The notes below the pieces were generated by a model that did no database searches, was not told the DNA's origin, and saw only the letters and a program-made list of their open reading frames with translations. DNA of 58,643 nt from a virus. Its lineage: Duplodnaviria; Caudoviricetes. The stretch's first letter is position 1; the number at the start of each line of letters is the position of its first letter. The translations under genes and the position numbers were made by a program. Positions 186-51,554 of the stretch are shown here, piece after piece. The DNA is taken from IMG/VR virus record IMGVR_UViG_3300033552_000006, positions 1 to 58,643 of that record. One strand, 5' to 3'.

Positions 186-249
186 TTGTGATAATTGGCT
201 TACTGCGTAATTGGGGTGCAGTTTTTTTGTGATAATTGGCTTACTGCGT
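186..249. repeat. 23-bp perfect direct repeat TTGTGATAATTGGCTTACTGCGT (186-208, 227-249)
   Basis: Read directly; lies immediately downstream of the ssb stop codon. Confidence 0.9.
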
Positions 250-593
250 TATAAGAATAGAATGTCTTCTACTATTATATCAGTAGTGTACATTGTTATT
301 GGTTCTTTGACGCCTTTGATTTTCTTATCGTATGATCTATTGGAGAGCTCTCCTTTGATTAGGACATGCTTGCCTTGTTTGATATACTTATTTACAATTT
401 CGGCTGTCTTGCCCCATGCTACGACTCTGTGGAACGTAGCGTTCTCCACTTTATTACCTTGTTTGTCGGTATAAGTGTTATTTGTTGCTACTCTGAATGT
501 GCTGGCTACTCTGCCTGATTCAAGAGTCTTGGTGATTGGGTTGTTTACTACGTTGCCAATCAATTGTACTGAGTTTTGAAGCGTTGCTTTCAT
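249..593 (-). CDS. ssb: single-stranded DNA-binding protein (OB fold, no acidic C-tail)
   Basis: NSVQLIGNV, FRVATN, FHRVVAWGKTAE, KGKHVLIKGEL-type SSB motifs. Confidence 0.93.
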   Translation of the reverse strand: MKATLQNSVQLIGNVVNNPITKTLESGRVASTFRVATNNTYTDKQGNKVENATFHRVVAWGKTAEIVNKYIKQGKHVLIKGELSNRSYDKKIKGVKEPITMYTTDIIVEDILFL

Positions 594-2740: not shown

Positions 2741-2950
2741 ATGGACAATACGATAAGAGAATTAATTTACAAGATGGAATGTAAGGGTTTTGATATTTTA
2801 GAAATTCATTTTTATCTTGATTTTGTTTGGATGGTTGTTTCTATTTATGTTCTTGCTCCTAGTGATTATGAAAAAAAGGTTTGCAAAGAGCGTTTGGCGC
2901 AAGCGCATATAGAGATTGATTTTACGGGATATAAAAAACAAAAATTATGA
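2741..2950 (+). CDS. hypothetical protein
   Basis: First ORF after the promoter; ATGA overlap with the next gene. Confidence 0.55.
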   Translation: MDNTIRELIYKMECKGFDILEIHFYLDFVWMVVSIYVLAPSDYEKKVCKERLAQAHIEIDFTGYKKQKL

Positions 2951-3150
2951 AAATAGAGTATGTAAAGCCGGGAAGCGATAAGATGACTGTTGTTTCTGGG
3001 AGTATGAAAAGCGTTAATAGGGCTATGGACGGGGTTTCAGCAAATATCATGAATATTACATTTGCGACTAATAGTGTTGAGGATGTGGACAAGGCTATAA
3101 AATTTTTGAATAGTATTAAAATTTGTCATGTATTAACAAAATCTTTATAA
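2947..3150 (+). CDS. hypothetical protein
   Basis: Translationally coupled ORF. Confidence 0.55.
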   Translation: MKIEYVKPGSDKMTVVSGSMKSVNRAMDGVSANIMNITFATNSVEDVDKAIKFLNSIKICHVLTKSL

Positions 3151-3158
3151 ACTTTAGC

Positions 3159-3923
3159 ATGGCAAAGCGAGACAAAAAGAAAATAATTAAAGTTGCTGTT
3201 ATTGGAAATGGAAAAATGTTACGCGGATTGAGTTTTAATATGGCAGCAATTAATTTAGCGTTGTATGGTTCTGTAGATCCAGATACAAAAATGCTTTGCG
3301 AGGCATCAAAAAAAATGTGGGAATGTGCTTATCCAAAACTTAGAAGAGGAAATAATTTTGGTATTCCAATAATTTTTGGAACGGCAGGAGATAATTTACC
3401 TTCTCAAGAATATTACAAAAAAATGATGCTAGGAGATTTTAATTTTCAAGATGTATTTGTTCCAATTAAACAACTTGTCATTGGAAAAAGCATGATAGAG
3501 CAGATAAATGAAAGTATTAAAAAAGGTGAATATTTACCTCAAGAAGAAATCGTTCGTAAAATGTCTATAAGAGAAGCACCACCGATTCCTTTATTTGAAT
3601 ATTTAAATGAATATCCACTTACACCAAAACAATGTTATAATACTATAAACCCGATTGCAAGGGAAAGTGCTACAATGCGTATGGAAGATAAAGTAAAAAC
3701 ATTAGGGGAAAAAAGATGCGGTGTTAATGATAACGGTGATGTTTATTCTACTCAAGGAATAATCAGAAAAAATACTGCATCGCTTATTGATTTGTGTGAA
3801 ACCATGAGAGGTGATAAGAACACTAATGGTGGTAGTCCGGAAAAACAACGTTTAATTTCACTTGCTCAAACTGCTTATCAAGAAGCAAAAATGTGGGCAA
3901 TCGAAGCAAGTTTTACAGAGTAA
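3159..3923 (+). CDS. fusion of a terminase-ATPase-like fragment and a C-terminal Acb2-like (cyclic nucleotide sponge) domain
   Basis: FGIPIIFGTAG / VFVP / EYPLT resemble TerL FGTPLIYGTGG / VFIP / SYPIK; C-terminal RLISLAQTAYQEAKMWAIEA resembles the Acb2 (T4 Vs.4) A-x-T-x3-EA-x-MWA motif; possible internal start at 3681. Confidence 0.65.
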   Translation: MAKRDKKKIIKVAVIGNGKMLRGLSFNMAAINLALYGSVDPDTKMLCEASKKMWECAYPKLRRGNNFGIPIIFGTAGDNLPSQEYYKKMMLGDFNFQDVFVPIKQLVIGKSMIEQINESIKKGEYLPQEEIVRKMSIREAPPIPLFEYLNEYPLTPKQCYNTINPIARESATMRMEDKVKTLGEKRCGVNDNGDVYSTQGIIRKNTASLIDLCETMRGDKNTNGGSPEKQRLISLAQTAYQEAKMWAIEASFTE

Positions 3924-3925
3924 TC

Positions 3926-4159
3926 ATGGCAAATACAGTAGAGAATTTCGACATGATTGCTGTAAGTAGCAGCAATCTTAAGGCTATTGGTTATAGCGAA
4001 GGGGTGATTAGAATTGAATTTATTAGAGGTTCTAAGTATGACTACTCGCCTTGCACAAAAGAAGAATTTGTTCAAGGGGTAAACTCAGGGAGTGTAAGTG
4101 GTTGGTTCAATACCATCAAGGCTACCAAGAACGCTAAAAAAGTGGAGAGTGATGGCTAA
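3926..4159 (+). CDS. KTSC domain protein
   Basis: VSSSNLKAIGY...IEF..GSKYDY...S.S...WFN.IK pattern. Confidence 0.85.
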   Translation: MANTVENFDMIAVSSSNLKAIGYSEGVIRIEFIRGSKYDYSPCTKEEFVQGVNSGSVSGWFNTIKATKNAKKVESDG

Positions 4160-4616
4160 GATATTTAACCCAAATACAGAACCTATAGAACTGGAGAATT
4201 TACCAAAGGGGAATAATAGAAAAGTAAGTGTTTTATTGAACTATATTTTGGGTTCAGTTTTGATTTTAGCATTAGGTTTATTTATAATTATTATAGGGGG
4301 AAAAAAAGAAGAGATAGATAAAGATAAAGGAATTATGGGATTAGAAAAACTAATAGAAATGCAAAACGGAAACATACTTACCCAAGAGGTAGAATATGAA
4401 ACCAGTAAAAAGATAGATCCGAAAGATACTTCGGGCATTTTCTTTGAAGTAGTAAACGGAAACGACAAGTTTCAAGAAGGGGATTTGGTAAAGTTCAACC
4501 ACCGCTTTAGAGAGCTTCAGCAGATTGAAGGAAAAGAATACTGCGTAATAGATCCAAGTCAAATCCAATTTAAAATCAAAAAAGAAGATGTCAAAGCAGA
4601 TATACTTAAGCGATAG
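4152..4616 (+). CDS. groES: GroES-like co-chaperonin with an in-frame N-terminal TM extension (alternative start 4335)
   Basis: EGDLVKF...IEGKEYCVI...I motif; directly upstream of and overlapping groEL. Confidence 0.65.
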   Translation: MAKIFNPNTEPIELENLPKGNNRKVSVLLNYILGSVLILALGLFIIIIGGKKEEIDKDKGIMGLEKLIEMQNGNILTQEVEYETSKKIDPKDTSGIFFEVVNGNDKFQEGDLVKFNHRFRELQQIEGKEYCVIDPSQIQFKIKKEDVKADILKR

Positions 4617-6138
4617 TCAAACTAAGATTATGGAAGGCATCAACTTACTGGCTGATGCAGTGCAAAGCACATTAGGTCCTTCGGGAAAAACAGTTATTAT
4701 TGCCGAGGAAGGTGACGAACCGTTTGCCACCAAAGATGGGGTAACGGTAGCCAATTGTATGAACAGTCGCGATCCTGTTATAAATGTGGGAATGCAGCTT
4801 ATCAAGAAAGTGGCAAGCAAAATGGATTTTGATTCAGGGGATGGTACCACAACGGTAACGGTATTGTGCCGGGCACTCATAAAACATGGGCTGGAACTTA
4901 AAGCCAAAAAAGGCTTTGACGAACATGCTTTCAAAGAAACTATTTACACTTGTTTGGGCAGAACCATTTATGAATTGAAAAAACATTCAAGAGAAGTTTT
5001 ATTGGCAGATATCGGAAAAGTAGCTCTTACCTCCACCAACAACGACAAGTTCCTTGCCAACTTATTTCAAGAAGCTTTCAATAACTCTGGAACAGAAGGA
5101 TACATCAACATCGTGGAAAGCGTTACCGGTAAAAGCTACGTCGATATCATAAAGGGTTATGTAGTGGAATTGGGGTATATGGAAAGAGCATACGCCAATA
5201 ATCCACTGACAGGTTTCTTTGAAGCACCCAAATGTTCAGTGCTTGTTTATGACAATGAATTCACAAGCAAAAAAGAAATCATGGCGCTGATACGCGTAAA
5301 CAATGGTTATACAAATCCTTTGCCTATATTAATTATTGCAAAAGACTATTCCAAAGAAGTTCAGGGAATTGTAGAGTTTAACAATATGGACCGAACAGGC
5401 AACAAGATATGTCTGATTAAGAACCCGTTGCGTAACGACGAGTACAATACCATGTTGCAAGATATTGCACAATACACAAATGCAGAAGTGGCAAGTTCTT
5501 ATAGCGAGTACGATACGGAACTTGGAATAGCTTATGACTTGGTAGTCAAACAAGGCTATACAGTAATGGGAGAAATTCCAGAAACCGAAAGAAAAGTATT
5601 AGACACTTATCTTTCCTTGTTAGAACAAGCTTCGGAGCAAGAAAAATCAGGACATTATTCAGCCATGATGCTCAAAAGAGTTGCCCGTATGCGCCATGGA
5701 GTAACCACTTTTTACGTTGGTGGTGATTCTGATATTGAACTCAAGGAAAAAAAACACCGAGTAGAGGATGCTTATAAATCCTGTAAGGCAGCATTGAAAG
5801 ACAATGTAATTATGGGCGGTGGGCAAAGCTTGGTTCTGATCACCTTAAATTACAATCCAAAAGAGGAATATGAAATGGCTTTTTATAAAGCTATGTTTGA
5901 ACCTTTCAATATTATTCTAAAAAACTCGCTTCACAAAGACGATGATCGTGTAAATGTTTCCAAGCAAATTAAATGGGGATATGGTTACAATGCCAAGACC
6001 AGGGAATATGAAGACTTGCATGAATCAGGGATTATAGATCCGGTGAGTGTTCAAATCAATGCTCTTACTAATGCAGTAAGTATTGCCCTTACCGTTTTAT
6101 CAACAGAATGTTTAATCGTGGAGACACCAAATCAATAA
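4588..6138 (+). CDS. groEL: phage chaperonin GroEL
   Basis: TLGPSG, TKDGVTVA, GDGTTT, ELKEKKHRVEDA, GIIDP motifs; no GGM tail. Confidence 0.95.
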   Translation: MSKQIYLSDSQTKIMEGINLLADAVQSTLGPSGKTVIIAEEGDEPFATKDGVTVANCMNSRDPVINVGMQLIKKVASKMDFDSGDGTTTVTVLCRALIKHGLELKAKKGFDEHAFKETIYTCLGRTIYELKKHSREVLLADIGKVALTSTNNDKFLANLFQEAFNNSGTEGYINIVESVTGKSYVDIIKGYVVELGYMERAYANNPLTGFFEAPKCSVLVYDNEFTSKKEIMALIRVNNGYTNPLPILIIAKDYSKEVQGIVEFNNMDRTGNKICLIKNPLRNDEYNTMLQDIAQYTNAEVASSYSEYDTELGIAYDLVVKQGYTVMGEIPETERKVLDTYLSLLEQASEQEKSGHYSAMMLKRVARMRHGVTTFYVGGDSDIELKEKKHRVEDAYKSCKAALKDNVIMGGGQSLVLITLNYNPKEEYEMAFYKAMFEPFNIILKNSLHKDDDRVNVSKQIKWGYGYNAKTREYEDLHESGIIDPVSVQINALTNAVSIALTVLSTECLIVETPNQ

Positions 6139-8040: not shown

Positions 8041-10212
8041 ATGGCAGTTACTATCCTTGACCACACTTACGATGCCAAAAGGTTTTCCCCTTTGGTATAT
8101 GATGAAAAAGTTCTCAAATATTCACAAACATTAAAAGCCGGCACTTTGGCTTATGATGATTTTTGGGATGAACAAGATGATCGATGTTTGTTCGGGCACA
8201 AGCCAAAGGGAATGAATGATATTACCGGAGAGCATTACTTTCATTTGAACATGAATCAGATTGAAATGCTTGTCCAGGGCGAGAACCGTAAAAGAATACA
8301 TTCGCCTTACTATCGGGAATTGGATAACCGACTTTTCAAAATTACCTATGATGCCAAGAAAAACCATTACGGGATTATTGTAGGTAAACCCAGAAGGGTA
8401 GGACTCTCGGAGTTCGGAGCCGTTCAGCTTCAGTACGAACTGCTAATGCATCTCAAAAACAGAGTTGGAATATGTGCCGGAAAGCAAGACAAAGCAGATG
8501 GTTTCTACGATAAGGTACTATCACTGCTAAAGCACGTAAGACCAGAGTATGCTTCGGCAAGGTTGTTCAAGAATGACAAATCCATGAAACTCGGTTATAC
8601 CGATATCGTAAACAAGCAGTCTATCGAATGTGGATTAGAATCTGAAATGTTGATCAGAACGATGTTTGTTGATTCTGCTGGATTTGAGGGAGCTTCGATG
8701 TCGGTAGTTATTTTTGAGGAAGCAGGTTTATTCCCAAACCTTGTTCAGTCTTACAAATCTACAGAACCTTGTTTTAAAGATGGTGCCATTCAGTTTGGAA
8801 CGCCTCTTATCTACGGAACGGGTGGACAAATCGAAAAAGGTTCCAAAGGATATTTAGATATGTGGGAGAACCACGTTGCCTACAACTTAGAAAAAGTATT
8901 TATTCCCGCCTATGAGTATTACCCTGGGGATGGAGAAATAGACGAGAAAACTAAAATCAAAGGCCCTAGTTTCTTTGATATTAAAACAGGACGTACCAAT
9001 CAGGAAGCAGCACTCAAGCATATTATTGAACAGCGTAAAAAAGCTTCCAAATCTAAAGAAGGAATCACCAAGCACATACAGTCCTACCCGATTAAAGAGT
9101 CAGAGATATTCATTAAAACTAAAGGAGGTATTCTGGACCGTATCAAACTGAACAATCAGCTGATGGTTATCGAAGAAGGGCTATGTCCTTATGATATACG
9201 TAAAGGTCGTTTAGAATGGGTGGACAACGAAGGAACTATCAAAGCATTGGGCAAATGCAAGGACACCAAAGAAAAAGTGAAAGTTCGTATCAAACGAAAT
9301 TCAACAGTTCGTTGGGTGGATGATGAAGAAGGAACTATTCAGAGATTAGCCGATCCTATCAACAATGATAGCATGGACCACAAACCCGATATTGCCGCTT
9401 GTGATAGTTATGACGAAGAAGTTGCCGATGCTTCTAAAGCTTCCGATGGAGCAACGTTGGTTTATAGAACTTATGCCGGTCCATCGAAAGATTACAATAT
9501 GCCAATTGCGGTACTTGCCGAACGTGGTGATTCCTCCACCGATGATGTGTTTTATGAAAACAATGTAAAAATGGCAGTTTACTTTAATTACGAACTTCTT
9601 GTAGAATACTCTAAAATTGCCATTATTAATTACTTCATTGATGTAGGCGCTGAACACTTACTAAAACAAAGACCGGATTTACGTAAAGAACTTGGGCCTA
9701 CTAAAGCCAAGAACGAGTACGGGCAACGTATGACCAATGACGTAAAAGTTTTAGGTACCAAACTGCTAAAAACAGAAGTCAAAGACAATTGTGATAATAT
9801 CTGGTTTAGAAATGTACTACTTGACCTTATCGACTTTGGGGATGTCAATACCGATATTGCTATGGCGTTCCTTATCGTGCTATTGTACAAATTAGAGATA
9901 TTTGAAACCATAGTCGAAGACGATGATGATTTTGATGATGGAGGAAATATATTTGATTCCATGGCTTACTACGATGTGGACTCAAGAGGAAATGTGGTTG
10001 TAAAAACTTATGGAGGAAATGAAGCGGACGAAATGGAAATGTATAACCCCGACATTCACCTTACCGAAACAGACAGAGCCGACATTCGTATCAAGAAAGA
10101 GCAGCATAAAAAGGAAATGGACGAAATTAAAAAAACCTTTGAAATCAAAAAGAAAACGTCTTTTGAAGATTTAATTCAAGAAGAAATAATGCGTAATATC
10201 AATCGTACATAA
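8041..10212 (+). CDS. terL: terminase large subunit
   Basis: Walker A-like GKPRRVGLS, Walker B VVIFEEAG, YGTGG coupling motif, RNase H-like ACDSYD and DIAMA; precedes portal. Confidence 0.92.
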   Translation: MAVTILDHTYDAKRFSPLVYDEKVLKYSQTLKAGTLAYDDFWDEQDDRCLFGHKPKGMNDITGEHYFHLNMNQIEMLVQGENRKRIHSPYYRELDNRLFKITYDAKKNHYGIIVGKPRRVGLSEFGAVQLQYELLMHLKNRVGICAGKQDKADGFYDKVLSLLKHVRPEYASARLFKNDKSMKLGYTDIVNKQSIECGLESEMLIRTMFVDSAGFEGASMSVVIFEEAGLFPNLVQSYKSTEPCFKDGAIQFGTPLIYGTGGQIEKGSKGYLDMWENHVAYNLEKVFIPAYEYYPGDGEIDEKTKIKGPSFFDIKTGRTNQEAALKHIIEQRKKASKSKEGITKHIQSYPIKESEIFIKTKGGILDRIKLNNQLMVIEEGLCPYDIRKGRLEWVDNEGTIKALGKCKDTKEKVKVRIKRNSTVRWVDDEEGTIQRLADPINNDSMDHKPDIAACDSYDEEVADASKASDGATLVYRTYAGPSKDYNMPIAVLAERGDSSTDDVFYENNVKMAVYFNYELLVEYSKIAIINYFIDVGAEHLLKQRPDLRKELGPTKAKNEYGQRMTNDVKVLGTKLLKTEVKDNCDNIWFRNVLLDLIDFGDVNTDIAMAFLIVLLYKLEIFETIVEDDDDFDDGGNIFDSMAYYDVDSRGNVVVKTYGGNEADEMEMYNPDIHLTETDRADIRIKKEQHKKEMDEIKKTFEIKKKTSFEDLIQEEIMRNINRT

Positions 10213-39515: not shown

Positions 39516-42500
39516 ATGGGAAAGATTTTTAAAAGCAACAATTTAGATCCTGCGGGAGTAAACATTCCTACTGCAGAACAAAATCAAGCAGAGTTCTTAG
39601 ATATGCAAAGCAAAAGTCAAGAAAATATTGACATGCAAACGGCTGACTATTTAGCTAAAGAAAAAAAGAAACAGTACGGTGATATCAATGCCGCTACACA
39701 AGATTCAGGAATGGCCGGCATGCAAGAAGAATTTCAAGGCATGGCTGGAACTGAAACTGCAATACAGAATCAAGACCAAAGCCAATTACCTAAAGCCTAC
39801 AATATGGATGATATCCATAGAAACTGGCTTGGGCAAACAGGAGAGTCTTTTATGAAAGGACTTGGCGATACTGTTATTGGCAGTACAGGTGATTTACTAA
39901 ATTTTGCTACTGCTCCGCTAGATGGTTTTACTATGCTTGAAGGAAATATACTTGGTAATGCTTTAAGAGAATATGGAGATGAAATGGCTGACGAGCATAC
40001 TACATTTCTTAAAAAGAAATTAGAAGGTCAAGAACTTACTTGGGGTTCTTTAGCTGATCCTGATTTTTGGAGTACTAACGTAGCTGAAATGATTCCAATG
40101 GCTTTGGAGTTTATGGTAACAGGTTTTGGTGCGGGAGCCGCTGCAAAAAAAGGAGCTGGATTTTTTGTTAAATCATTAGGCACTGAAGCTAGATTATTAA
40201 AAGCCATGCAAACATCAACTGATGTTGCAGAAGGTTTGGCCGGAAGCGGTAGACTTGTAAAAGATATCATAGGAACTGGTAAAGGAATTAAAGACTTTAG
40301 TCTTGCCAAGTATCTTACCCGAAATGTTGATGGCGTTCTTGAAATGTCAAAGTTCAGTAAAGAATTTGCGGGCGCTGCTGGTGCGGGTGCTGCAAACAAT
40401 TTACTTACAGGTGCAGTAAATGGAATGGAAGCTCATAGAGAAATGGTTTCTCAAAATGAACAAGATATAGCCAAAGGAATAGCACCTCGCTATACAGAAG
40501 ACGAAATGGCACAAGTTGCTACAGGAACTTTTACAAGAAATATGCTTTATGCTCCAATGGATATGATTTCTTGGGGATTGAGTTATGGCAAAGCCGGAGA
40601 AAAATTAATGGCGGGAATGTCTAAAAAAATGGTTTTAAAACCTGCTGAAGAAATAGCCAAACAAACTGCCGCTTCTTTTACTAAATCTACTTTCCCATTA
40701 GTAAAAGGAATTATGGGTGCTGCAGGTCATGGATTCATGGAAGGAGCAGAAGAAACTTTCCAAGAAACTTATGAAGAATGGGCAAGGCTAAAATCCAGAG
40801 AAAAACACTTAGGAGAAAAAGCTCCTGACTATTGGGATTTTTATTTCTCTAAAGAAAACAAAAATACTAAAGTAGCTTCTTTTGCTATGGGCGCTCTTAT
40901 GGGTGGAGCAATGAATCTTAACTTCAAAAAAGCTGCCGAAGAAGGATTAAATTACAGAGATCGTTCCGAAGTATTAAGAGCTACTATTGATGTTAATGAC
41001 AAAGGTGGACAAAATGCTAAAACGTATCACATCAGAAATCAAATGATTGACTTATTGCATGATGATAAGGTTGAGCATTTTGATGCTTTTATGTCATCGT
41101 TATTAGCTAAAGGAACTATTGATGAAGAACAGCTTAATGAATACACCAAAGAATTTCAAGAAGTAAGTGTTGATTATAATGCTGCTGCTAATTTGAACGT
41201 AGCCGGTAAATATGCTTTGGCTGAGAACACCATTAAAGCAAAATCATTGTCACGATTTATCGAAAATGAAAAAGCTTCTTATGCTGAAAAGCAAGCTTCC
41301 CTTAAAGAAAATTTTGATGGAGAAGAAAACAACGCTGTCTTGCACCAGGAACAACTTCAAGAATTGGCTGATTTAGAAAATACAATGGCCGAGGCAGAAA
41401 ATCCTATTACAGCTGAAAAAATAAAGCACATCAAAGAAAGTATTGCTGAGCATAAAAATTCTCCAGTACAAGCGCAGTATGCTAAATTAGAATCGGAACA
41501 CAACCAACAAGTGGAAATGTTGAGTTTAAATTTAGCAATGGCTAATGCTAATAGAATGAATCTTATTTCAGGAAAATCGGCAACGCCTTTGAATATTAAA
41601 TTCTGGAAAAATTCAAATGGAGTAGAACAAGTTTTTATTACTGAGGATTCTAAAGAATATTACGAAGAAGGATTTAGTTATTCCAATGAAAATAAAAACG
41701 ATCCTAATTTAAAAGATAAAAAATCAATGTCTGAGGGTGACTTGCAATCGTTCCAAGCAGAAGGTGATGTTCTTGCTGGATTGTCTGATAAACAATACGA
41801 ACAATTTGTCAACATGAGTTCTGAAGAAGTTTTTGAAAGTGCTAAACGCAACCACGAAAACATGCTTAAAAACGCAAGCAAAGAAACTATTAAAATTTAT
41901 GACAAGATAATGGGCAAAGGCAAAGAGCTTGTCGGAAAAGTTAAAGCTAAACTAGATGCTAATGGCAACCCTGTTCTTGATGAAGAAGGGAATCCTGTTA
42001 TGGAGCCGGACACTGCAGAAACAACTCCTACTTCAACAAAACCTATCAATCCTAATATTTCTCCAAGTGGTGAAGAAAATGCTTATGAAAAAGCATATCA
42101 AGAAGGTGGTTTAGAAACTGCTAAGGAAGCTGAGGCTAGAAAAATTGCTGAAGAAGAAGCTAAGTTTAAAGAAAAACAAAGTACAGAGCCTAAAACTAAA
42201 GAACAACAAATTGAAGATTTTTTCAAAGGAATGAACGCTGATGAAGGTGCTCAAAAAAAAATGAAAGAATATGCAGAACGTTTGGCCAACGGTGAATCAG
42301 AAGAAAAAGTTTTTGAAGGAATAAATCTTGATGGAGCTATAGCAAATGGTACCAGAGAATATTTAAATATAATTCAAGATTCTCAGATTGATGAAAATTT
42401 AAATCAAAAACCGACTTACAGTGTTGTTAAAGACAAAGTTACCGGAAAGTATTCTTTAGTTGATACGGTAACTGGCGAGCCGCACCCTAACGGTAAAACA

Positions 42501-45500
42501 TACACTACTTCTATATCTGCTAAAAAAGATTTGGGTAACGCTTCTGTTGTTGGCACTGTTGTCAAAGGTGCTTGGACAGGAACCAAAGGCGCTGTTAAAT
42601 TAGCGGGCAAAGGGTTAAAGTATGCTGCTAAAACAGGTCGTGGAATTGCCAAAGAAGGTGGCGAAATTATAGAAAAAACTCAGGAAGAAATTCAAAATGC
42701 ATTAGACCAAAAAGCTAAAGAGAAAGCCAATACGCAAAACGTCAATCAGGATGCCATGCGTAAGAAAATCATGCATGATGCTTATTACAGTTCCTCTGCC
42801 AGAAACATTGCCAACAATCCTAATGCTGCTGTTTCTAAACAAGAATTAGATGCTTACCTTGATACTAAAATAGCGGCGTTCAAATGGGGGCCAAGAGCCA
42901 TCGAAGAACAGTACACTATCAATAGAATCTTAAAAGCAAAAGGTATTGATGTTAATGTTGTAATTGCCCAAAATCTATTTTCTGCAGTAGGCACCCATGC
43001 AGTAGGTTATGCATTGGCAAGTACTATTTATATTGATGAAAAGGTTTGGAATCAACCAGCTGTATTTATGCATGAAATGTCACATATTCATTACCAACTT
43101 ACTCAAAATACTCCGGCTACAAAAGCAGTAGTAGAATTTGCTAGAAGGGATGCTAAATTGGTGGAAAAAGTAGAACGTTTATATGCTACTAAAGTAATCT
43201 ATGAATCAGAAGGTAAAAAATTTACCCTTGAAACATTCTTAAATGATATTGGCGGACAAGAAGCTTATCAAGACGTAATAGATGAACATGGAATGGAAGC
43301 GTTTTTAGCAGATATTGGTATCACCAAAGCGCCTGATTCAGAACAGTCAGTAATCAATGAGGAATTGTTCACTCATACTCTTGAAGGCCCAATGGCTAAA
43401 AATTTCAACCAAGCCTTAGAACCTATTCGTGAAAGAGGTAGAAAAATAGAATCTAAAAAATGGTGGAGTTGGTTAAAAGGAAACCAAGTTACTTTTGAAC
43501 CATTTGCTTTGGATGTTGCTGAAAAATTAAACAAAGGAGTTGCAATAAACCGTAACGATTTGTTTGAACACGTTATGAGTAAGTTTTCAGAAGAAGTGGC
43601 TAAAAAACCAAAGTCAGCGTTTACTGCTTCCGGGCATGCTTCTATTGTGGACATGCAACAAGCTAATGCTATAGCAAACCATCAAAGAATTACTGCTTCT
43701 AAAATTGAGCAAAGACAATCTTACGATGCCGAAGAAGCTAAGAAAAAAAACAGAGCAACTACCTATGCTAGACTGGCTCAGAAAATCAAAGCGGATATTA
43801 ACATCAGCATGAAAGATATGTCCGAGTTGGAACGTAGAAACGAAACAGAATTCCAATTGGAAGAACTGGAAAACTCTATGTTGGAAGAAGGGGCTTTCGA
43901 TGATTACGAATTAGCCAAGTCTGTTCAGTTTAGGGGAGCAACTAGAATACTGAACAGCTTTACCAAAAGTTTGAATTATGTGAAACGCCAACGTTTTGCA
44001 GCAGCCGATGGTATCGCTTCTGATTTTAATGAAGATGATTTGTTAGATAGAGACGCGTTAATTTCAGAGTTCTATAGTCTTGCCTTTGAACACAAAGGAA
44101 ACACTAATGGATTTATAGATTCTATCGAAACCAGTCAAGTGGAAGAAGTGTATCAGTTCAATCAGTACATGGAGAAAATGCACCCGGGAGAGAAACATAT
44201 GTACTTGAGTTCTATGGCTCACGTAATGGCAAACACTCAAACCATAAGTGCTATCAAAAGTGTAGTTACCGCTGATGGGAAATGGGAAACAGTCAATGCT
44301 CTATCCGAAACAGAAAACCATAAGGTTCAAAACCACATGGCTAAAATGGAACGTGATGAAAATTTACATTACAACCATAAAACGGACGAAAATGCATCGC
44401 TTCCAGTTCAGAATTATCAGTACTTTATTGATGCCTACAATGACATCAAATCAGGTAATCAAAATGATGAAAGCTATTTAGGAATCCTAAGAATGATTGC
44501 TCCAACAGGAACTAAGTTTTCGGCCTTGATCAACAACCAAACTATCAACATGAAAGGGCACAATATCAATGTGAGAGTTCTTATTGATAAAATGGTAAAA
44601 TCCAAAGTGGCCGAAAATGAAAACGGTAAAATTGCAGTGTACAAACTAAAACCGTTCATTGAAGCCATTGTAGACAGTAACCGTAAATTCACTTCGTATT
44701 CTGTAATCCAGAATGCTGAGGGGAACATGGAACCAAGCAAGATTACCAACAATCATTTATTGTCAGAGATTAATGCTATGAATGAGTTTCTTGTCAAAGA
44801 CGCAAAAGGCAATTTCCCGACCTTTAAATCATTTAAGGAAAGATATTCCCATTTGTCTGACGCTTCCAACAGAACGCATGAAAACCCTGTTTTAAGAGGT
44901 ATCTACGATAATGCTAAAAGCAATACTGCTAGACCTTCTTTAACTCAGTATGCTGGACTTACGCACTTGCAGAACGGAGCTAACTCTTTGTATAAAAACT
45001 CAACTGACTTTGCTCAGACTATTGAGGATTTTATGTTGTTCAGCAAATATACTTCTAAGAACTATGTTCAGACTTTGAGTGCTATGGCTGACAGTCCAAG
45101 AAAGTTCATGATGACAGTTGAACGTATCTTGCACAAAGATGCTTTCAACTCTAAAAATGAATTGACTTTAAAAGGAAAACGTTTGCTTGAATCCTCTTGG
45201 AAAATTTATGATAAATCCAATGAAAATCTTTCTGGAAAAAAGAAAGCAATGACTATGCAAACTCAAGGAGAATTCTTTACCAAGTTTGATCAGTCCGTAA
45301 GCAAGGAAATTGCTCGTTGGAATGAGAATGCTAAAGACCTGATAGCTAACAAAACAATTGAGCCTACTTATTTTACTAACGGAAAGCTTAATGCCAACGG
45401 AGAAAATAAGATACGTGAATTTGTATTGAACCAAACCGTTAATGGAATGGCATTGGCTGAAATATTCAATCCGGGTATTCCTTTTAATGATATCGTAAAA

Positions 45501-48500
45501 CGTAACAAAGGAAACAGTTCTCCTGTAATCACTTTCGGAAACAAGAATCTTAAAATGGAAGCTATTCCAATTGACGATACTAAATCTGAACTTGGTTCTA
45601 ACTCTGGTATGTATATGACTCAAGCTATGGCTCAAAAAATAATTGATGCCGGACTTGGAGTCTTTGATTTGAATCATGGATTAAAATTATTGAACTACCA
45701 TGTAGAGAGAGATAATCCAAATTTTAAAGGAGTATCTGCTTACTTCAAAGGGTACACAACTATAATCTCTGAGGAGACTTTAATCACTGAACCTGGACTA
45801 AAAGGTATTTACCAATTACTTACGGAACGTGAAGAAAAGTACAACGGAGAATATTTCGATAAGTATGGAGTTAGTCCTTCTTTAGATATTACCAATGGGG
45901 AAGAAAACTACATCAACTATGCCGTTCCGTATTCTGCCATTAAAAGCGATTTGTTTTCTGCTGAGCAACAACAATCATTATCAGGTATAACTTATGAAGC
46001 ACTCGAAGCCAATTTATCAGACCACCAAAACAGATTGCAAGGAGACAAAGAAACTGTTACTGAATACGATAAAATGCATGCTGCTTTGGATGCTCTTTAT
46101 TATGGCGATAATGGTTTCATGGGCTTATCTACCAATAATTTTGGGCCACAACAAATAATGGATAAACAAACTGAAGAAGCGGTAACGCCTGTTCAGTTTA
46201 TGTCCTCTGTTATTGTAAACGGAATGGTTGGCAACAACTTAGAAATGGGAGAAGAAATTCAAAAGCTTATCCGTACCGATATGAAGAATAACTTGGACGA
46301 GGTTATCTCTGAATTGGGGAACATGGAACCGGCTAAGTACAAGGCTTTCATCTTAAAGAATTTGGATTTGGAGAATATGGACCAAACCCAAAGGCTTATG
46401 ATTGAAGAATCCCTTACTAATCTTAACCATCCGGCTGTATCTGACTTTATAACTAATACATTAGCCAATAGATTAAAACAAGCCGGAAACAAGCTTAAAA
46501 CAAATGGTAGTGTTGCACAACAAAAACCATCATTACATTTTAAATACGGTAGAGGTAAGAACTATTCTATTAATGGAAGAACAGGACTTGCTGGATTTAC
46601 AGACAGACACAATGCCGATGGTAGTGTAGGAACTATGGTTAATGAAATCGTATTGCCTAAGCACATGAAAGATAAAGTTATCTTCAGACAGTACTTGGAC
46701 GAAAACGATCCTCAAGCTATGCGTATCATAAAAGCAAATGCAGACTTAATGGGTAAGTTTACCAAAGCTACTACCGAAAATGATGCTCAAGCTAAATCTG
46801 ATGTAATGAAACAAGTGGCTTTAATGATTGCACGTTCCAGACATGGACAAGCAAGAACAAAGGGTTCTTACGGGCATGATGTAAATGATTATATCGGAGA
46901 GTTTTACGAAGATGGCGTTGCTAAAGGTTGGTTTGTTCGCGGAGAAAGTGTGATGGGTACTCGTATTCCTTCGCATGGACCAGCATCAACAGGAGTCTTT
47001 GAAGCAGTAGATTATTTGGAAGGAGAAGGAAACCAAACTATTGTATCAGAAGAATTTTCAGATATAGCCGGTTCCGATTACGATGGAGATTCCTTGTTTA
47101 TTCAACGCAAAGGAAAAGAGACGCCAAACTTCAACCAAGCTTTGGAAAAAACAGTTGACTTATGGACTTCTCCGGGAATGAAAAACCAAATCAAAGCTAA
47201 GATTGAATTTGAAAAAGAAGTTGAATCAGTTATCGGTGATCAGAAAGTAGAAAAGCAAATGCCTATGTCTCCGGCTTACCACCGAGAAGCGTACAACAAT
47301 ACCATGATTTCTAAAAGAAATATTGGTATCATTTTCAACACCCACCGTATTGCAAATTACTTGGCGGCTTACAATGTAAAATTGAACAGCCCTATTAATA
47401 TCGATGGAACCAGAGTTGATGCTTTTAGCGATAAGGAAGTAGGACAAGAGAGTAGAAACAATCAATCTGCTATGCTTGCCAATATCATTTTGGATAATAC
47501 CAAATGGGGTTTCGCTGATGCTTTGGGATTAAATGACCAAACTATCAACCAGTACTCTTTACTTACTAACATGGGATTCTCTTTAAAGCAAATCAATGGT
47601 ATCATGAACTCAAAAGCGGTTAAGGTTTGGAACAAGCACCAAGCCAATAACCAAAACCCGTTCGCTACCAAAATGAAAAATGCTGATGTAAAGAAAGCCA
47701 TACTAACGGAATTAGGTATAGACGATTCTAAAGTGAAAGCAATCAGTATTAACACTAGTGCCGATAAGATAAATTCTAAAGAGCAAATGAAGCACATTAT
47801 TCAAATGATGGAGACATTGGAAACCATGAACGCTGATATTTTACATATCTCTAAAATTATGGCAGGCCACAAAGGAATTGAAAACGATCCGTTTGTATTG
47901 GAAAAACAATTGTCGGCATTTGATCAAGTAATCAATTCTGATAAAAACAATGCTTTGCTTACGTTCCCTAAAGCGTTCAGAGATAATCCGGACATTAGTG
48001 CTTATCACGATAATGCTTCTCGCATATTGGAGATTATGAAAAAAGCCAATACCATTTACAATAAATCAACTTCTGAGTTGATTGCTGTACTGGACGAGAA
48101 AATAGGTTTTGATAAAAAACTTAGCAAAAGCCAACAGGAACGTGCTTCAGATATCATCAAAAGATTTACTACTTCCAGAATGTTAGGGTTAAACAACCTT
48201 ACTTCTACGGAGAAGCTTAAAGTAAAAAGACAATTGTTTAAAAACATTCAGGCTTATGAAAAAATGTTGCAAGAAACTAAGCTTCCGGGCAACAGAGGAC
48301 TTACGCAATTGGACAAAAGCGTATTGTTCAACAGAGCATTGAATATCAATATCAAACATGCACCTGGACAAAAAAACAAAACTGAAGGAGCTAAAGTTTT
48401 TGACGAAAAAAGCTATGTGTCAGCAAATCCAAGATTCTTTAATGAAAGCATTACAGAAGAAGATAGAATTGCTGTACAACAAGAGTACAAAGCATTGCCT

Positions 48501-51500
48501 CAAAATATCAAAGATGGATTGCTTACTTTGGATTTAATGAAAAATGGATTAACAGGAAAATTATCTTTGTCAAGTATTTTTGATGAAGGTACTAACCATG
48601 ATATTTCTACTTATGCTGCACATGATAGCAAAACCAAGAACAATCCTATAGATAAAAAAGTGATGGATAAATTAGAAAATCTTATTATCTCTAATGAATT
48701 CAAAACTAGCAAAAGCATTCAAGACGTTAGTGGTACTGTATCTTTTAAAGCGGGAGATAACTTAGTCTCTTACATCAGAACCAACAACAAAATTGTATCT
48801 GATGGATTGCAAAGAGGTAATGGAATGATATTCAAAGTAAATGGCAAGCCCTATATCTACGAAGGTATTTCCAAAGAAGAAAAGGACATGATCCGCCAAG
48901 GAAATCGCGATGCTCAAACACAACAACAAGCTTTTACTACTGCTTTGTTCGGTAAAATAAAACCATACAAAGTTTTTGAAGGAGAGGATATCAATCTGGA
49001 AGCTATTTCTATTCCTGATATTGATGGAAGCAGACCCACTTACAAAAGTAAAAAATCAGAGCAGTCCACTAAAGCGGGCCACATGACTGAAGCTACTGTT
49101 AAGTTTGAATCTACTATAAAAAAAAAAGCTAACGTAGGTAACGCTTCACTTATTGATTACCATAACTACAATGACGTTGCTCCCTTAAATCAAAGGGAGT
49201 TTAACGTTGTTATGGAATACGACCAAACCATTGACGACGAGCAAAAAGAATTAGTTTATAAAACCTATCTCGACGAAAAGAAAGAAGCCAATGACTTAAT
49301 GGCTACCCACAATCAAGAAACTTTTTCCAAAATGACTGATGATAATTTGAGCAAAGCCTATAGCAAATTTGCCCAAAAAGATATGTATGCCTATTCTGTT
49401 ATTACTACACCGCTTATCATGGAACTAGCGAGTCGTATGGGCGTGGAGCAAAGTGCCTTAACAGAACAGTTTGAAGATGGCAAGGATATTAGTCTTATGG
49501 ACAGTTGGCTAAACAACAACAACATCTCCTCCAATCATCCCGTTACCCAAAACCTTGTAAAGAAGCTTGGAGAAGAATACAAAAAATTCGTATTGGAAAG
49601 AGGGAAATATATTAAGAGTATCAATACGGCTACCGATGCACTTTACCAAGAGAAATTTGGGCTTAGCAAAAACAAATATGTTCGTATGGGGCAAAGAGTA
49701 GTACAGTCTTTGGTGAACAATAGAATTGAAGTTTATGAGAAGCTATACGGAAATTTGATAGAGAGGGAAGAAATTATTGATGCCAATGGAACCACAAAGA
49801 AAACTTTGAAGTTTAAAAGTGAAGATACTATAAAAGCTTTGCACAAATCAGGTAAAATCAGTCAGGCTGAAATGGACTTTTATACTGTATTTAGAAAAAC
49901 CACTAATCACTTAAAACAATTTGATGGAAACGATAAAACCCGTAAGGATTATATACCACATACTGCTATGGGTAACTTTGAACAGTTCGCCAATAGAGGT
50001 TTGTTAGGATTAATGGTTAATAGCAAGGGAATTGACAGTGTAATTGAGGACGTAAAAGTATATACAGATATTGGTGGCAAAAAAGAATTAATATCGTTTA
50101 GAGACGCCAAAAATCATTACAATGCTTTGGCTTATTCCAAACAACAAACGCCTAAAGATTTATTGAATTTTGAGAAGTTGAAACGTACTGCTAAAAAATT
50201 GCAAAAAACAGGAAAGAACGAAGATGGTTCTCGTTTGATTTATAGCAATATGCAAAATGAGACTTTGCTTGGAATGAGTCCATTGAGTAGGTTTGCAAGT
50301 TCTCGTTCTAATACTGCCGAAATAATGCCCTCAATGGATTTAAATAAAGCATTAGTGGAATACGTCAACGCAAGTATGTTTACTAATGGAAATGAAAGCT
50401 TCAAAGGGTTCAAAGCTATGATGCCAATGATTGATGGAGTGATGGCTTACAATGAAAAAAACGGATACCAAAATGCGTACAAGTATGTAAAAGAAGTGGT
50501 AAAAGAAGGGTTCATTATGAAAAAAGACCAAATCACTTTCAGCAAAAATACTGATGCTGTAATCAATGGCTTGGTTAAAAGCAATACGATGTATGCTTTG
50601 GGATATAAGGGTATGCTTATAGGGAAAGGGATATATGCCATTGGTAACTTAGCCGTTGGTAAGTACATGAACATAAAAAGGGAAGGTGGAAAGTCTTGGG
50701 CTGTTGGAGAGGCTCGCTATTGGGGAGTGGACAAAGGCATCAGCTTAGATACTTTGGATAGACGTAGGAGAGCAAAAAACATACTTTCCAATTTAGGGTA
50801 TATGGAAGCTGACTTCTACGATGATGTAGATATTGAAGCTAAATCAGGTATCGACAATGTATTTACACAAATGGCTTTACTGCCAATGTCGGTGACTGAA
50901 AATTGGATTCAAAAAAGTCATATGCTTGGAATGCTTACCGATGAAGAGTTTGACAAGTTTGATGAAAAAGGACAATACAAAACGGGGGAAACACAAATTC
51001 AAATGGAGCGTGTTCAGAAACTTGAAGAGCGAGTTAAGAACTCACATGGTAAGGGGTTTAGTCCTACAGACCAAAGTAGAATCCATAGGTATGCAGTAGG
51101 TAAAATGTTCATGCAATTTTCAAGACATTTACCTGTACAAATCAGAGAGCGATTTGCTAAAGAGGATATTGATATGAACGGACAAAAATATATCGGTTCA
51201 TTGAGACAAGTGGGTAAAACAGCTGTTGATATCTTCAACAATCGTATGACTCCTGACAAATTTAAAGAGTACTATGCTGACTTGGAACCGCATCAAAAAG
51301 AAGCGTTGCTTGCTGGACTGAGAGGTATGGCACTTATGACTACTCTTGGAATGATAGCGGGCCATTCTACTGATGCAAGTCAAATGACTTCGGGAACTGA
51401 TGCCTCTAGTGTAGCCAGTGGGGTTATGAGTGATGCAAACATTCACTTTGACTTAGACAGGCTTGGACTTAAAACGATACCCCCTTCGGTACGTTCTGCT

Positions 51501-51554
51501 ATGAGTGTGCTAAAAATGATAACACATGGTGGTCAGACTGATGCTGGTAAGTAA
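39516..51554 (+). CDS. virion RNA polymerase polyprotein (zincin domain + two-barrel RNAP)
   Basis: TRIPSHG...AGSDYDGDSL catalytic loop (DYDGD at 47076-47090, aa 2521-2525); HEMSH at 43071-43085 with downstream EELF; 4012 aa. Confidence 0.9.
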   Translation: MGKIFKSNNLDPAGVNIPTAEQNQAEFLDMQSKSQENIDMQTADYLAKEKKKQYGDINAATQDSGMAGMQEEFQGMAGTETAIQNQDQSQLPKAYNMDDIHRNWLGQTGESFMKGLGDTVIGSTGDLLNFATAPLDGFTMLEGNILGNALREYGDEMADEHTTFLKKKLEGQELTWGSLADPDFWSTNVAEMIPMALEFMVTGFGAGAAAKKGAGFFVKSLGTEARLLKAMQTSTDVAEGLAGSGRLVKDIIGTGKGIKDFSLAKYLTRNVDGVLEMSKFSKEFAGAAGAGAANNLLTGAVNGMEAHREMVSQNEQDIAKGIAPRYTEDEMAQVATGTFTRNMLYAPMDMISWGLSYGKAGEKLMAGMSKKMVLKPAEEIAKQTAASFTKSTFPLVKGIMGAAGHGFMEGAEETFQETYEEWARLKSREKHLGEKAPDYWDFYFSKENKNTKVASFAMGALMGGAMNLNFKKAAEEGLNYRDRSEVLRATIDVNDKGGQNAKTYHIRNQMIDLLHDDKVEHFDAFMSSLLAKGTIDEEQLNEYTKEFQEVSVDYNAAANLNVAGKYALAENTIKAKSLSRFIENEKASYAEKQASLKENFDGEENNAVLHQEQLQELADLENTMAEAENPITAEKIKHIKESIAEHKNSPVQAQYAKLESEHNQQVEMLSLNLAMANANRMNLISGKSATPLNIKFWKNSNGVEQVFITEDSKEYYEEGFSYSNENKNDPNLKDKKSMSEGDLQSFQAEGDVLAGLSDKQYEQFVNMSSEEVFESAKRNHENMLKNASKETIKIYDKIMGKGKELVGKVKAKLDANGNPVLDEEGNPVMEPDTAETTPTSTKPINPNISPSGEENAYEKAYQEGGLETAKEAEARKIAEEEAKFKEKQSTEPKTKEQQIEDFFKGMNADEGAQKKMKEYAERLANGESEEKVFEGINLDGAIANGTREYLNIIQDSQIDENLNQKPTYSVVKDKVTGKYSLVDTVTGEPHPNGKTYTTSISAKKDLGNASVVGTVVKGAWTGTKGAVKLAGKGLKYAAKTGRGIAKEGGEIIEKTQEEIQNALDQKAKEKANTQNVNQDAMRKKIMHDAYYSSSARNIANNPNAAVSKQELDAYLDTKIAAFKWGPRAIEEQYTINRILKAKGIDVNVVIAQNLFSAVGTHAVGYALASTIYIDEKVWNQPAVFMHEMSHIHYQLTQNTPATKAVVEFARRDAKLVEKVERLYATKVIYESEGKKFTLETFLNDIGGQEAYQDVIDEHGMEAFLADIGITKAPDSEQSVINEELFTHTLEGPMAKNFNQALEPIRERGRKIESKKWWSWLKGNQVTFEPFALDVAEKLNKGVAINRNDLFEHVMSKFSEEVAKKPKSAFTASGHASIVDMQQANAIANHQRITASKIEQRQSYDAEEAKKKNRATTYARLAQKIKADINISMKDMSELERRNETEFQLEELENSMLEEGAFDDYELAKSVQFRGATRILNSFTKSLNYVKRQRFAAADGIASDFNEDDLLDRDALISEFYSLAFEHKGNTNGFIDSIETSQVEEVYQFNQYMEKMHPGEKHMYLSSMAHVMANTQTISAIKSVVTADGKWETVNALSETENHKVQNHMAKMERDENLHYNHKTDENASLPVQNYQYFIDAYNDIKSGNQNDESYLGILRMIAPTGTKFSALINNQTINMKGHNINVRVLIDKMVKSKVAENENGKIAVYKLKPFIEAIVDSNRKFTSYSVIQNAEGNMEPSKITNNHLLSEINAMNEFLVKDAKGNFPTFKSFKERYSHLSDASNRTHENPVLRGIYDNAKSNTARPSLTQYAGLTHLQNGANSLYKNSTDFAQTIEDFMLFSKYTSKNYVQTLSAMADSPRKFMMTVERILHKDAFNSKNELTLKGKRLLESSWKIYDKSNENLSGKKKAMTMQTQGEFFTKFDQSVSKEIARWNENAKDLIANKTIEPTYFTNGKLNANGENKIREFVLNQTVNGMALAEIFNPGIPFNDIVKRNKGNSSPVITFGNKNLKMEAIPIDDTKSELGSNSGMYMTQAMAQKIIDAGLGVFDLNHGLKLLNYHVERDNPNFKGVSAYFKGYTTIISEETLITEPGLKGIYQLLTEREEKYNGEYFDKYGVSPSLDITNGEENYINYAVPYSAIKSDLFSAEQQQSLSGITYEALEANLSDHQNRLQGDKETVTEYDKMHAALDALYYGDNGFMGLSTNNFGPQQIMDKQTEEAVTPVQFMSSVIVNGMVGNNLEMGEEIQKLIRTDMKNNLDEVISELGNMEPAKYKAFILKNLDLENMDQTQRLMIEESLTNLNHPAVSDFITNTLANRLKQAGNKLKTNGSVAQQKPSLHFKYGRGKNYSINGRTGLAGFTDRHNADGSVGTMVNEIVLPKHMKDKVIFRQYLDENDPQAMRIIKANADLMGKFTKATTENDAQAKSDVMKQVALMIARSRHGQARTKGSYGHDVNDYIGEFYEDGVAKGWFVRGESVMGTRIPSHGPASTGVFEAVDYLEGEGNQTIVSEEFSDIAGSDYDGDSLFIQRKGKETPNFNQALEKTVDLWTSPGMKNQIKAKIEFEKEVESVIGDQKVEKQMPMSPAYHREAYNNTMISKRNIGIIFNTHRIANYLAAYNVKLNSPINIDGTRVDAFSDKEVGQESRNNQSAMLANIILDNTKWGFADALGLNDQTINQYSLLTNMGFSLKQINGIMNSKAVKVWNKHQANNQNPFATKMKNADVKKAILTELGIDDSKVKAISINTSADKINSKEQMKHIIQMMETLETMNADILHISKIMAGHKGIENDPFVLEKQLSAFDQVINSDKNNALLTFPKAFRDNPDISAYHDNASRILEIMKKANTIYNKSTSELIAVLDEKIGFDKKLSKSQQERASDIIKRFTTSRMLGLNNLTSTEKLKVKRQLFKNIQAYEKMLQETKLPGNRGLTQLDKSVLFNRALNINIKHAPGQKNKTEGAKVFDEKSYVSANPRFFNESITEEDRIAVQQEYKALPQNIKDGLLTLDLMKNGLTGKLSLSSIFDEGTNHDISTYAAHDSKTKNNPIDKKVMDKLENLIISNEFKTSKSIQDVSGTVSFKAGDNLVSYIRTNNKIVSDGLQRGNGMIFKVNGKPYIYEGISKEEKDMIRQGNRDAQTQQQAFTTALFGKIKPYKVFEGEDINLEAISIPDIDGSRPTYKSKKSEQSTKAGHMTEATVKFESTIKKKANVGNASLIDYHNYNDVAPLNQREFNVVMEYDQTIDDEQKELVYKTYLDEKKEANDLMATHNQETFSKMTDDNLSKAYSKFAQKDMYAYSVITTPLIMELASRMGVEQSALTEQFEDGKDISLMDSWLNNNNISSNHPVTQNLVKKLGEEYKKFVLERGKYIKSINTATDALYQEKFGLSKNKYVRMGQRVVQSLVNNRIEVYEKLYGNLIEREEIIDANGTTKKTLKFKSEDTIKALHKSGKISQAEMDFYTVFRKTTNHLKQFDGNDKTRKDYIPHTAMGNFEQFANRGLLGLMVNSKGIDSVIEDVKVYTDIGGKKELISFRDAKNHYNALAYSKQQTPKDLLNFEKLKRTAKKLQKTGKNEDGSRLIYSNMQNETLLGMSPLSRFASSRSNTAEIMPSMDLNKALVEYVNASMFTNGNESFKGFKAMMPMIDGVMAYNEKNGYQNAYKYVKEVVKEGFIMKKDQITFSKNTDAVINGLVKSNTMYALGYKGMLIGKGIYAIGNLAVGKYMNIKREGGKSWAVGEARYWGVDKGISLDTLDRRRRAKNILSNLGYMEADFYDDVDIEAKSGIDNVFTQMALLPMSVTENWIQKSHMLGMLTDEEFDKFDEKGQYKTGETQIQMERVQKLEERVKNSHGKGFSPTDQSRIHRYAVGKMFMQFSRHLPVQIRERFAKEDIDMNGQKYIGSLRQVGKTAVDIFNNRMTPDKFKEYYADLEPHQKEALLAGLRGMALMTTLGMIAGHSTDASQMTSGTDASSVASGVMSDANIHFDLDRLGLKTIPPSVRSAMSVLKMITHGGQTDAGK

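Follow-up and report, generated by a model that had tools for sequence, protein, structure and literature searches.

What does a phage gain, if anything, from one protein that joins a terminase-like segment to a nucleotide sponge? The question is raised by the open reading frame (ORF) P0001, at 3159-3923 of the IMG/VR virus record IMGVR_UViG_3300033552_000006, whose full 58,643 nucleotides are referred to here as the window. The original prediction, made from the letters of the sequence, had described this ORF as a terminase fragment fused to an Acb2-like sponge. The gene is present in one copy in the 58.6-kb record, which is rated 74% complete. We assign a probability of roughly 0.6 to the reading that it encodes a chimeric accessory protein, in which an Acb2 sponge carries a TerL-derived N-domain, and that it lies in a variable anti-defence island ahead of the chaperonin-terminase-portal block. 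The ORF is divided as follows.

3159..3923, plus strand: whole ORF P0001, 254 amino acids (aa), ATG at 3159 and TAA at 3921-3923, no internal stops
3159..3653, plus strand: N-domain, residues 1-165, from an unnamed family of small phage proteins
3654..3680, plus strand: junction, residues 166-174 (IARESATMR), with the ATG of M173 at 3675; it resembles the P0019 junction and the start of the L073 sponge gene, both described below
3681..3920, plus strand: Acb2-family module, residues 175-254, beginning at an in-frame ATG (M175) that is the start point of stand-alone relatives

The phage's own TerL is encoded at 8041-10212, 4 kb downstream of the 3159-3923 gene on the same strand, and matches phrog_6681 (E 3.4e-51). 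It shares ~23-28% identity with crAss-family terminases, and Flavobacterium and Cellulophaga phages were also matched. A portal gene lies 3' of TerL (phrog_6547). Judged from the TerL match and the adjoining portal, the phage is crAss-like. Three related phages span the region of interest (L007, L009 and L073), with TerL proteins 77-80% identical to that of the window.

The Acb2-family module

As judged from its family-model match, the last 80 residues of P0001 are a complete Acb2-family module. Two features within it were located.

3762..3908, plus strand: Acb2/Tad1 hairpin match to PF24729, residues 202-250 (28.3 bits, cut-off 27, E 2e-6)
3849..3872, plus strand: R231 to T238 (RLISLAQT), placed by alignment A1 and the alignment to Vs.4 and compared with the available text of PMC10312549

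The stretch SLAQTAYQEAKMWA (residues 234-247), for which the original prediction had called the last 80 residues Acb2-like, falls inside the PF24729 match, and the call was upheld. PF24729 was annotated in 14 of 14 short homologs of residues 165-254 (68-124 aa, 40-57% identity) from a search restricted to shorter proteins, and the Acb2-like relatives in L007, L009 and L073 score 38.7, 33.9 and 37.4 bits, respectively. Stand-alone relatives of the module are 68-92 aa long. By tblastn, 146 Flavobacterium phage records carry a homolog of residues 181-254, which in phage FCL-2 forms a stand-alone gene of 75 aa; the stand-alone homolog P0005 begins at the equivalent of M175.

We compared a family profile (A1, 16 sequences) with the Protein Data Bank (PDB). 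The top match was T4 Vs.4 (7uq2), over 44 columns; a single-sequence search of the PDB gave no Acb2 match. The module resembles the Acb2 proteins (T4 Vs.4, PaMx33 Acb2; PF24729) in the fit of the C-terminal 80 residues to the family model, in the Acb2-like size of its stand-alone relatives, in a C-terminal helix motif, A..T....EA.MWA..A, common to the module family and Vs.4, and in an Arg/Thr pair spaced as in the cyclic-trinucleotide pocket. It differs from them in being the tail of a 254-aa protein and in belonging to a subfamily (TLGEKRV..FNP...IDLCE...RLISLAQTAYEEAAMWAVKA) that lies far from any Acb2 of solved structure (E 0.026 for an alignment limited to the hairpin).

The Arg/Thr pair, R231 and T238, is invariant in 16 of 16 sequences of A1 and is collinear with D61 and T68 of T4 Vs.4 in the profile alignment. 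According to the available text of PMC10312549, R67 and T74 of PaMx33 Acb2 bind cyclic trinucleotides through the phosphates and are equated with D61 and T68 of T4 Vs.4; T4 keeps only the Thr of the pair, and the authors made a T4 D61R mutant. Because the Arg and Thr of the family align with the R67/T74 positions, the subfamily appears to keep both trinucleotide-pocket residues. The pair points to cyclic trinucleotides as the probable ligand. Most family members also have F...K at a spacing similar to that of Y11 and K26, the dinucleotide-pocket residues of PaMx33 Acb2, and the window protein is without the F. A sponge activity of the C-terminal module would be expected by homology, and this predicted function is well supported on that ground.

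The N-domain family and its relation to TerL

The N-domain family is rare, and about 30 members were found. A phmmer search with residues 1-168 against 1.84 billion representatives returned 24 matches, namely the query, 22 relatives (70-372 aa) and a TrbI protein rich in repeats, which is a spurious match; none of the 24 is a terminase. A profile search (21 matches) added a few family members, and a scan with an 11-sequence family alignment recovered the L007 contig alone from the viral collection and nothing from the metagenome collection. The family core reads LRG..N..xN.A.YGS.DPD...KE.WE.A.PK...G.P.IFGTGG. The proteins typically start with MAKRDKKK, and many end in KLSKR or RYDRNK. None of the Pfam and PHROG models matches the family. 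Its smallest members, at 70-80 aa, are the size of known sponges. Since the phmmer and profile searches recover a conserved family, the upstream part of P0001 is not a decaying remnant.

The original prediction had aligned this part by eye with the C-terminal region of the ATPase of the phage's own TerL, at three places. BLASTP, hhalign and HMMER reproduced the three matches, the one at the EYPLTP stretch with low posterior. The segments concerned are listed here.

3315..3464, plus strand: TerL-like core, residues 53-102, comprising a helix, the motif III strand and loop (GIPIIFGTAG) and VFVP
3600..3638, plus strand: YLNEYPLTPKQCY, residues 148-160, collinear with TerL HIQSYPIKESEIF at the end of the ATPase domain (HMMER, low posterior)
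8749..8910, plus strand: matching segment of the phage's own TerL, residues 237-290, just past Walker B (VVIFEEAG, residues 222-229)

By BLASTP, residues 67-115 match TerL 252-302 (E 4e-4 for a single pair), a stretch that spans FGIPIIFGTAG/FGTPLIYGTGG and VFVP/VFIP. Comparison by hhalign of an N-domain alignment (A3, 23 N-domain sequences with no TerL included) with a TerL alignment (A4, 17 TerL sequences) gave a probability of 96% and an E-value of 4.3e-9 over 50 columns, pairing the helix and motif III strand of residues 53-102 with TerL 237-290. The N-domain profile also matched the TerL ORF in 27 of 35 related loci and in the window at E <= 0.01 (best 4e-8), always around TerL residues 245-400; the 35 loci had been fetched via TerL peptides outside the region in question. 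A motif scan yielded 75 further stretches, TerL genes for the most part. Over both sets of loci, 95 of 9,829 ORFs were matched, comprising 86 TerL ORFs and 9 rows that are N-domain family members or two small look-alikes; the 75-locus set is biased because its pattern selects the motif. On either side of the core the correspondence continues in a weaker form. A looser hhalign setting pairs LRG with TerL FEG just ahead of Walker B, collinearly and with weak support, and HMMER pairs EYPLTP with TerL SYPIKESEIF, also collinearly and with low posterior. The YLNEYPLTPKQCY region is common to P0019, P0022, P0030 and P0021.

The N-domain differs from crAss-like TerL (phrog_6681) in length (~165 versus ~720 aa) and in the absence of catalytic parts, which the original prediction had noted and which direct reading confirmed. 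There is no Walker A in P0001 (no GK[ST]). At the position collinear with TerL VVIFEE the Walker B acids are replaced, the protein reading AAINLA and the family consensus AEMN; N32 is nearly invariant in the family. P0001 also has no nuclease domain, as its TerL-like part ends near residue 160 and the remainder is the Acb2 module. MAKRDKKK and YGS.DPD are specific to the N-domain and absent from TerL. We examined GNGKM (residues 16-20), which has the one GK of the protein, as a degenerate P-loop and rejected it because it is unconserved in the family and directly precedes LRG; nor is it followed by S/T. Lacking Walker A, the Walker B acids and a nuclease domain, the family is best regarded as a derived TerL ATPase fragment, not a terminase. 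From the alignments, we judge that it descends from the C-terminal half of the ATPase domain of a crAss-type TerL.

Structure prediction added little. AlphaFold2 on the whole protein without an alignment was uninformative (pLDDT 37), and a two-copy complex prediction of N-domain residues 1-140 scored 0.01, which is evidence neither way. With the N-domain model as query, Foldseek found no structural neighbour in the PDB (best E 9.5), and the matches in the ESM Atlas (best score 0.83) were unrelated. Of the checks by profile comparison and by structure proposed with the original prediction, the profiles thus gave matches to TerL and Acb2 and the Foldseek search of the N-domain gave none.

Three further observations concern the family. 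The first 50-60 bases of the N-domain gene (window 3159-3216, encoding MAKRDKKK...VAVIG) match short contigs with unrelated flanks in two runs, one of them the probable source run (X1 record 2; X3 records 9 and 10), and the 5' end of N-domain genes seems to be conserved at the DNA level across otherwise differing contexts. One source names the member P0042 (L007 3221-3646) a '7-cyano-7-deazaguanine synthase in queuosine biosynthesis', a name without support here. Small ORFs in two distant crAss-like phages (L030 6238-6489, plus strand; L074 551-925, minus strand) have only the core W..A.PK....G.P.I.GTGG.

Sponge partners, gene order and cassette borders

The N-domain is found with sponges outside the window as well. 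P0019, a 372-aa protein with 41% identity over the N-domain, consists of an N-domain, a PF21825 domain (58.5 bits) and an Acb2-like tail, which aligns with the front half of the profile of the Acb2-like family (hhalign E 2.7e-7). Its junction NPMARLSAANKMENNLK resembles the window junction NPIARESATMRMEDKVK and the first residues of the L073 sponge gene. PF21825 is Sequestin, which sequesters 3'cADPR and blocks type I Thoeris, and whose frequent fusions to Tad2 and Acb4 led to its discovery (10.1101/2025.07.12.664507, available text). P0001 itself has no PF21825 match at E <= 1. The fused sponges Tad2-Acb4, Tad2-Sequestin and Sequestin-Acb4 of the same source resemble P0001 in placing short anti-defence modules in one polypeptide. 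They differ in that the partners named in the part of that source covered, supplementary tables excluded, are those of Tad2 and Acb4, not Acb2, and none is terminase-like. With the same exclusion, the literature covered described neither an anti-defence protein derived from terminase nor a comparable Acb2 fusion.

We compared the gene order of the window with that of L007, L009 and L073. The common order in these relatives is a MECKGFD protein, the N-domain gene, an Rv2179c-like exonuclease, the Acb2-like gene, a KTSC gene, a ~150-aa protein, GroEL, and further on TerL and portal. The N-domain gene (130-192 aa, with its own stop) and the Acb2-like gene are separate and 1.6-2 kb apart, the latter being downstream of the former by ~2 kb or less in 3 of 3 such loci. 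The Acb2-like gene encodes 70 aa in L007 and 77 aa in L009 and is the tail of a 237-aa protein in L073. As variations on this order, the MECKGFD gene of L009 comes after the N-domain gene, not before it; L007 has a GIY-YIG endonuclease and L009 small genes between the N-domain gene and the exonuclease; and L007 has an extra PF21825 protein (62 bits) after the Acb2-like gene. A KTSC gene follows the sponge genes in 3 of 4 loci by tblastn (window, L007 and L073). In L009 the window KTSC query gave no tblastn match, and an ORF of similar length at that place is assigned by position and length alone.

Compared with these relatives, the N-domain and Acb2 parts are the least conserved of the syntenic genes. 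Identity is 33-49% for the Acb2 part and 77-80% for TerL; the N-domain is 32-34% identical in L007 and L073 and gave no tblastn match in L009. This is the pattern expected of arms-race genes.

The fused form of P0001 is a singleton cluster, with one member on one contig, and the borders of the exchanged cassette were visible in contigs from other runs. The contigs of two of three other runs (X2 and X4, from two studies), ~90% identical to the window, match from 3681 on, that is, from the ATG of M175; those of the third run end short of the cassette border. In the X2 and X4 contigs an in-frame TAA stands two codons ahead of the ATG equivalent to M175, and the Acb2 gene stands alone. On the other side, an X2 contig matches 3048-3140 and then continues into a different gene start, MKYFFD, which is exonuclease-like. 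Because the contig matches break at both borders, the N-domain cassette of the window (3141-3680) fills the slot of the relatives' exonuclease. No repeats flank the cassette, and short nucleotide repeats common to both halves (AAAAATGTGGG and others) were taken as chance in AT-rich DNA. The window retains the ATG of the stand-alone gene. As P0005 starts at the M175 equivalent, a free 80-aa sponge could also be made in the window.

The original prediction had named a stop between the parts in relatives, with a decaying upstream part, as grounds for abandoning it. The stop is there, in the X2 and X4 contigs and in the separate genes of L007, L009 and L073; the upstream part is a conserved family. 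The fusion, whose conservation it had also asked about, is for the most part not kept in relatives; the one distant protein with a comparable joining is P0019.

The genes flanking the ORF are the following.

2947..3150, plus strand: 67-aa neighbour on the upstream side, of no known family, marking where the exchanged cassette has its left edge
3926..4159, plus strand: downstream neighbour, KTSC-domain protein, 77 aa; PF13619 at 24.5 bits narrowly misses the cut-off of 25

The same-strand order ahead of TerL in the window is two small ORFs, the 3159-3923 gene, KTSC, a 154-aa protein, a GroEL-type chaperonin and four ORFs more. The 154-aa protein (4152-4616, plus strand) has a hydrophobic stretch and no family and precedes the chaperonin. 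The chaperonin (4588-6138, plus strand; PF00118, phrog_5725 E 2.4e-102) is located after the accessory island and before TerL, and both genes are kept in L007, L009 and L073. Elsewhere in the window, the leftward and rightward gene blocks diverge at ~2432-2741; a single-strand DNA-binding protein (249-593, minus strand; PF00436 E 3.8e-26) heads the leftward block of small family-less genes, and one ORF of 4,012 aa (39516-51554, plus strand) follows ORFs of 1,562, 898 and 672 aa.

The variable island of the relatives has further contents. The Rv2179c-like 3'-5' exoribonuclease (259-263 aa), absent from the window, is at 4454-5245 in L007, 4804-5595 in L009 and 8986-9765 in L073. The GIY-YIG homing endonuclease of L007 (3669-4469, plus strand; PF01541 E 4.4e-8) stands right after the N-domain gene; a 2026 paper describes, in its available part, a homing endonuclease that amplifies anti-defence loci (PMC13096335). 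The island of L009 also contains an acyl-carrier-protein-like gene (4370-4624, plus strand; PP-binding, E 1.4e-7). In the 237-aa protein of L073 (8270-8980, minus strand) the last 60 residues are the Acb2/Tad1 hairpin (37.4 bits), so that a sponge is fused to a further partner. The first 170 residues match no Pfam family and have a weak phrog_1048 match at residues 68-107; a DUF2829/Tad2 identity proposed by eye for the middle of the protein was dropped, as Pfam gave no support at E <= 0.05. Finally, P0034 (186 aa) is an in-frame chimera of the front half of the N-domain, up to the PK of WE.A.PK, and the C-terminal 60 residues of the exonuclease (GFPMYC...FEFL). As far as its sequence tells, it shows that deletions in the island would readily make in-frame chimeras.

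What the fused protein may do

In the reading that we favour, a chimeric anti-defence accessory protein, a cassette exchange would have set a stop-less N-domain gene directly ahead of the Acb2 start codon, in the slot that relatives use for an exonuclease gene. The N-domain would derive from the half of the TerL ATPase domain that starts at the strand before Walker B, takes in GxPxIxGTGG (the motif III strand) and closes with the EYPLTP motif, and its family would have lost all parts required for ATP hydrolysis and DNA cutting. By homology, the Acb2-family part would oligomerise, with a hexamer as the expected form, and sequester cyclic oligonucleotide alarm signals, and CBASS-type effectors would stay off. 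The fused form is presumably made and working. Because it is fused or adjacent to sponges, the N-domain may itself be an anti-defence module. Its mechanism would be, in order of preference, that of a binder of nucleotide signals or host factors, of a TerL look-alike acting against TerL-sensing immunity, or of a packaging regulator. More broadly, and only tentatively, the N-domain family could be a new counter-defence class that arose by exaptation of that half of the terminase ATPase which faces the nucleotide, a sponge-like signal binder or receptor-blinding TerL look-alike shuffled with Acb2 and Sequestin into multi-target proteins.

Several observations weigh against the favoured reading. 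On the side of the sponge, the PF24729 score is just 1.3 bits over the cut-off and the PDB match is marginal (E 0.026), and Y11 and K26 of PaMx33 Acb2 could not be placed because the N-terminal half of the module aligns to no solved Acb2. On the side of the N-domain, significant similarity to TerL covers 50 columns only, with poorly supported collinear flanks. The family profile found no solved TerL in the PDB, with nothing below E 0.3, and the likeness would therefore be specific to the crAss-type TerL clade. AlphaFold2 with 30 aligned sequences modelled the N-domain at pLDDT 65.7 and pTM 0.24, as helices only with no strands. The look-alikes in L030 and L074 have no sponge families nearby. 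As for the fusion, it is a singleton; the parts are separate genes in L007, L009 and L073 and are divided by a stop in the X2 and X4 contigs; and, with the ATG of the stand-alone gene retained, it may be the free sponge that does the work. The two-part anti-defence protein of the original prediction is partly supported, by the identity of its halves, by the variable sponge island and by the fusion of an N-domain to Sequestin; the relatives, where the parts are separate, speak against it.

The same facts about the fusion suit a neutral read-through chimera, in which an exchange removed the stop by chance, the working products are the free M175 Acb2 sponge and the N-domain alone, and the fusion adds nothing and may be short-lived. 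The genes are separate in relatives, the TAA stands two codons ahead of the ATG in ~90% identical contigs, the M175 ATG is kept and is where P0005 starts, the fused cluster is a singleton, and P0034 is another in-frame deletion chimera of the same island. Against this, P0019, only 41% identical, is fused at the homologous junction, which suggests that the fusion persists or has arisen more than once. Phages commonly have working fusions of sponge modules, according to the available text of 10.1101/2025.07.12.664507. In addition, there is no stop between the parts of P0001, so each ribosome starting at 3159 makes the fused protein. We consider the neutral chimera rather unlikely.

A terminase decoy appears improbable. 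It would have the N-domain mimic a TerL surface read by Avs-type STAND sensors and block them, while the sponge handles the signalling systems, and the TerL-derived N-domain and its link to anti-defence modules are consistent with it. Avs systems detect terminases and portals, and the anti-Avs proteins named in the available part of the EVADES preprint are ORF55 (a ligase) and ORF83 (DprA-like) (10.1101/2025.06.06.658234). As those two are of other kinds, an N-domain decoy would be a new mechanism. However, the fragment is without the ATPase and nuclease active sites, its counterparts in TerL are buried core strands, and the N-domain gave no confident fold. In the published Avs3-TerL structure the sensor reportedly reads these TerL ATPase and nuclease active sites. 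A sensor-binding fragment would, moreover, be expected to trigger the sensor, not block it.

Very improbable, finally, is a packaging regulator. In this reading the N-domain would bind TerL or portal via the end of the ATPase domain, which it retains, and would tune or poison the assembly of the motor, whether that of the phage itself or that of a competitor. In its favour, the region ending the TerL ATPase domain is retained, the model is most confident at a helix-loop-helix (residues 110-136, pLDDT 85-86), T4 gp17 contacts the portal with the corresponding subdomain, and the gene lies 4 kb ahead of TerL on the same strand. Against it, the gene is placed among fast-changing accessory genes outside the conserved packaging block, is fused to sponges with no known packaging link, and is missing near many TerL relatives, with 4 distinct N-domain genes and 2 remote look-alikes in 113 sequences scanned, which represent fewer distinct contigs (several loci per contig) and include many loci too short to tell.

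Sponge proteins are a main phage route to silencing signalling immunity, and new sponge families have lately been found via the fusion partners of known sponges (10.1101/2025.07.12.664507, available text). By this fusion-partner logic, the 3159-3923 gene flags an unnamed family that is covered by no Pfam or PHROG model. There is nothing unusual in the sponge half; the point of interest is the N-domain and its repeated link to sponges. Both fusion and gene order connect its family with two sponge families, and an origin in the terminase motor appears traceable. If the N-domain is not an anti-defence module, the case still documents how cassette exchange makes in-frame chimeras in a phage accessory island. 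If it is one, an essential virion-assembly enzyme would have been recycled as a part for immune evasion, and sponge biology would extend to the crAss-like phages of Bacteroidota, in which it has been little tested.

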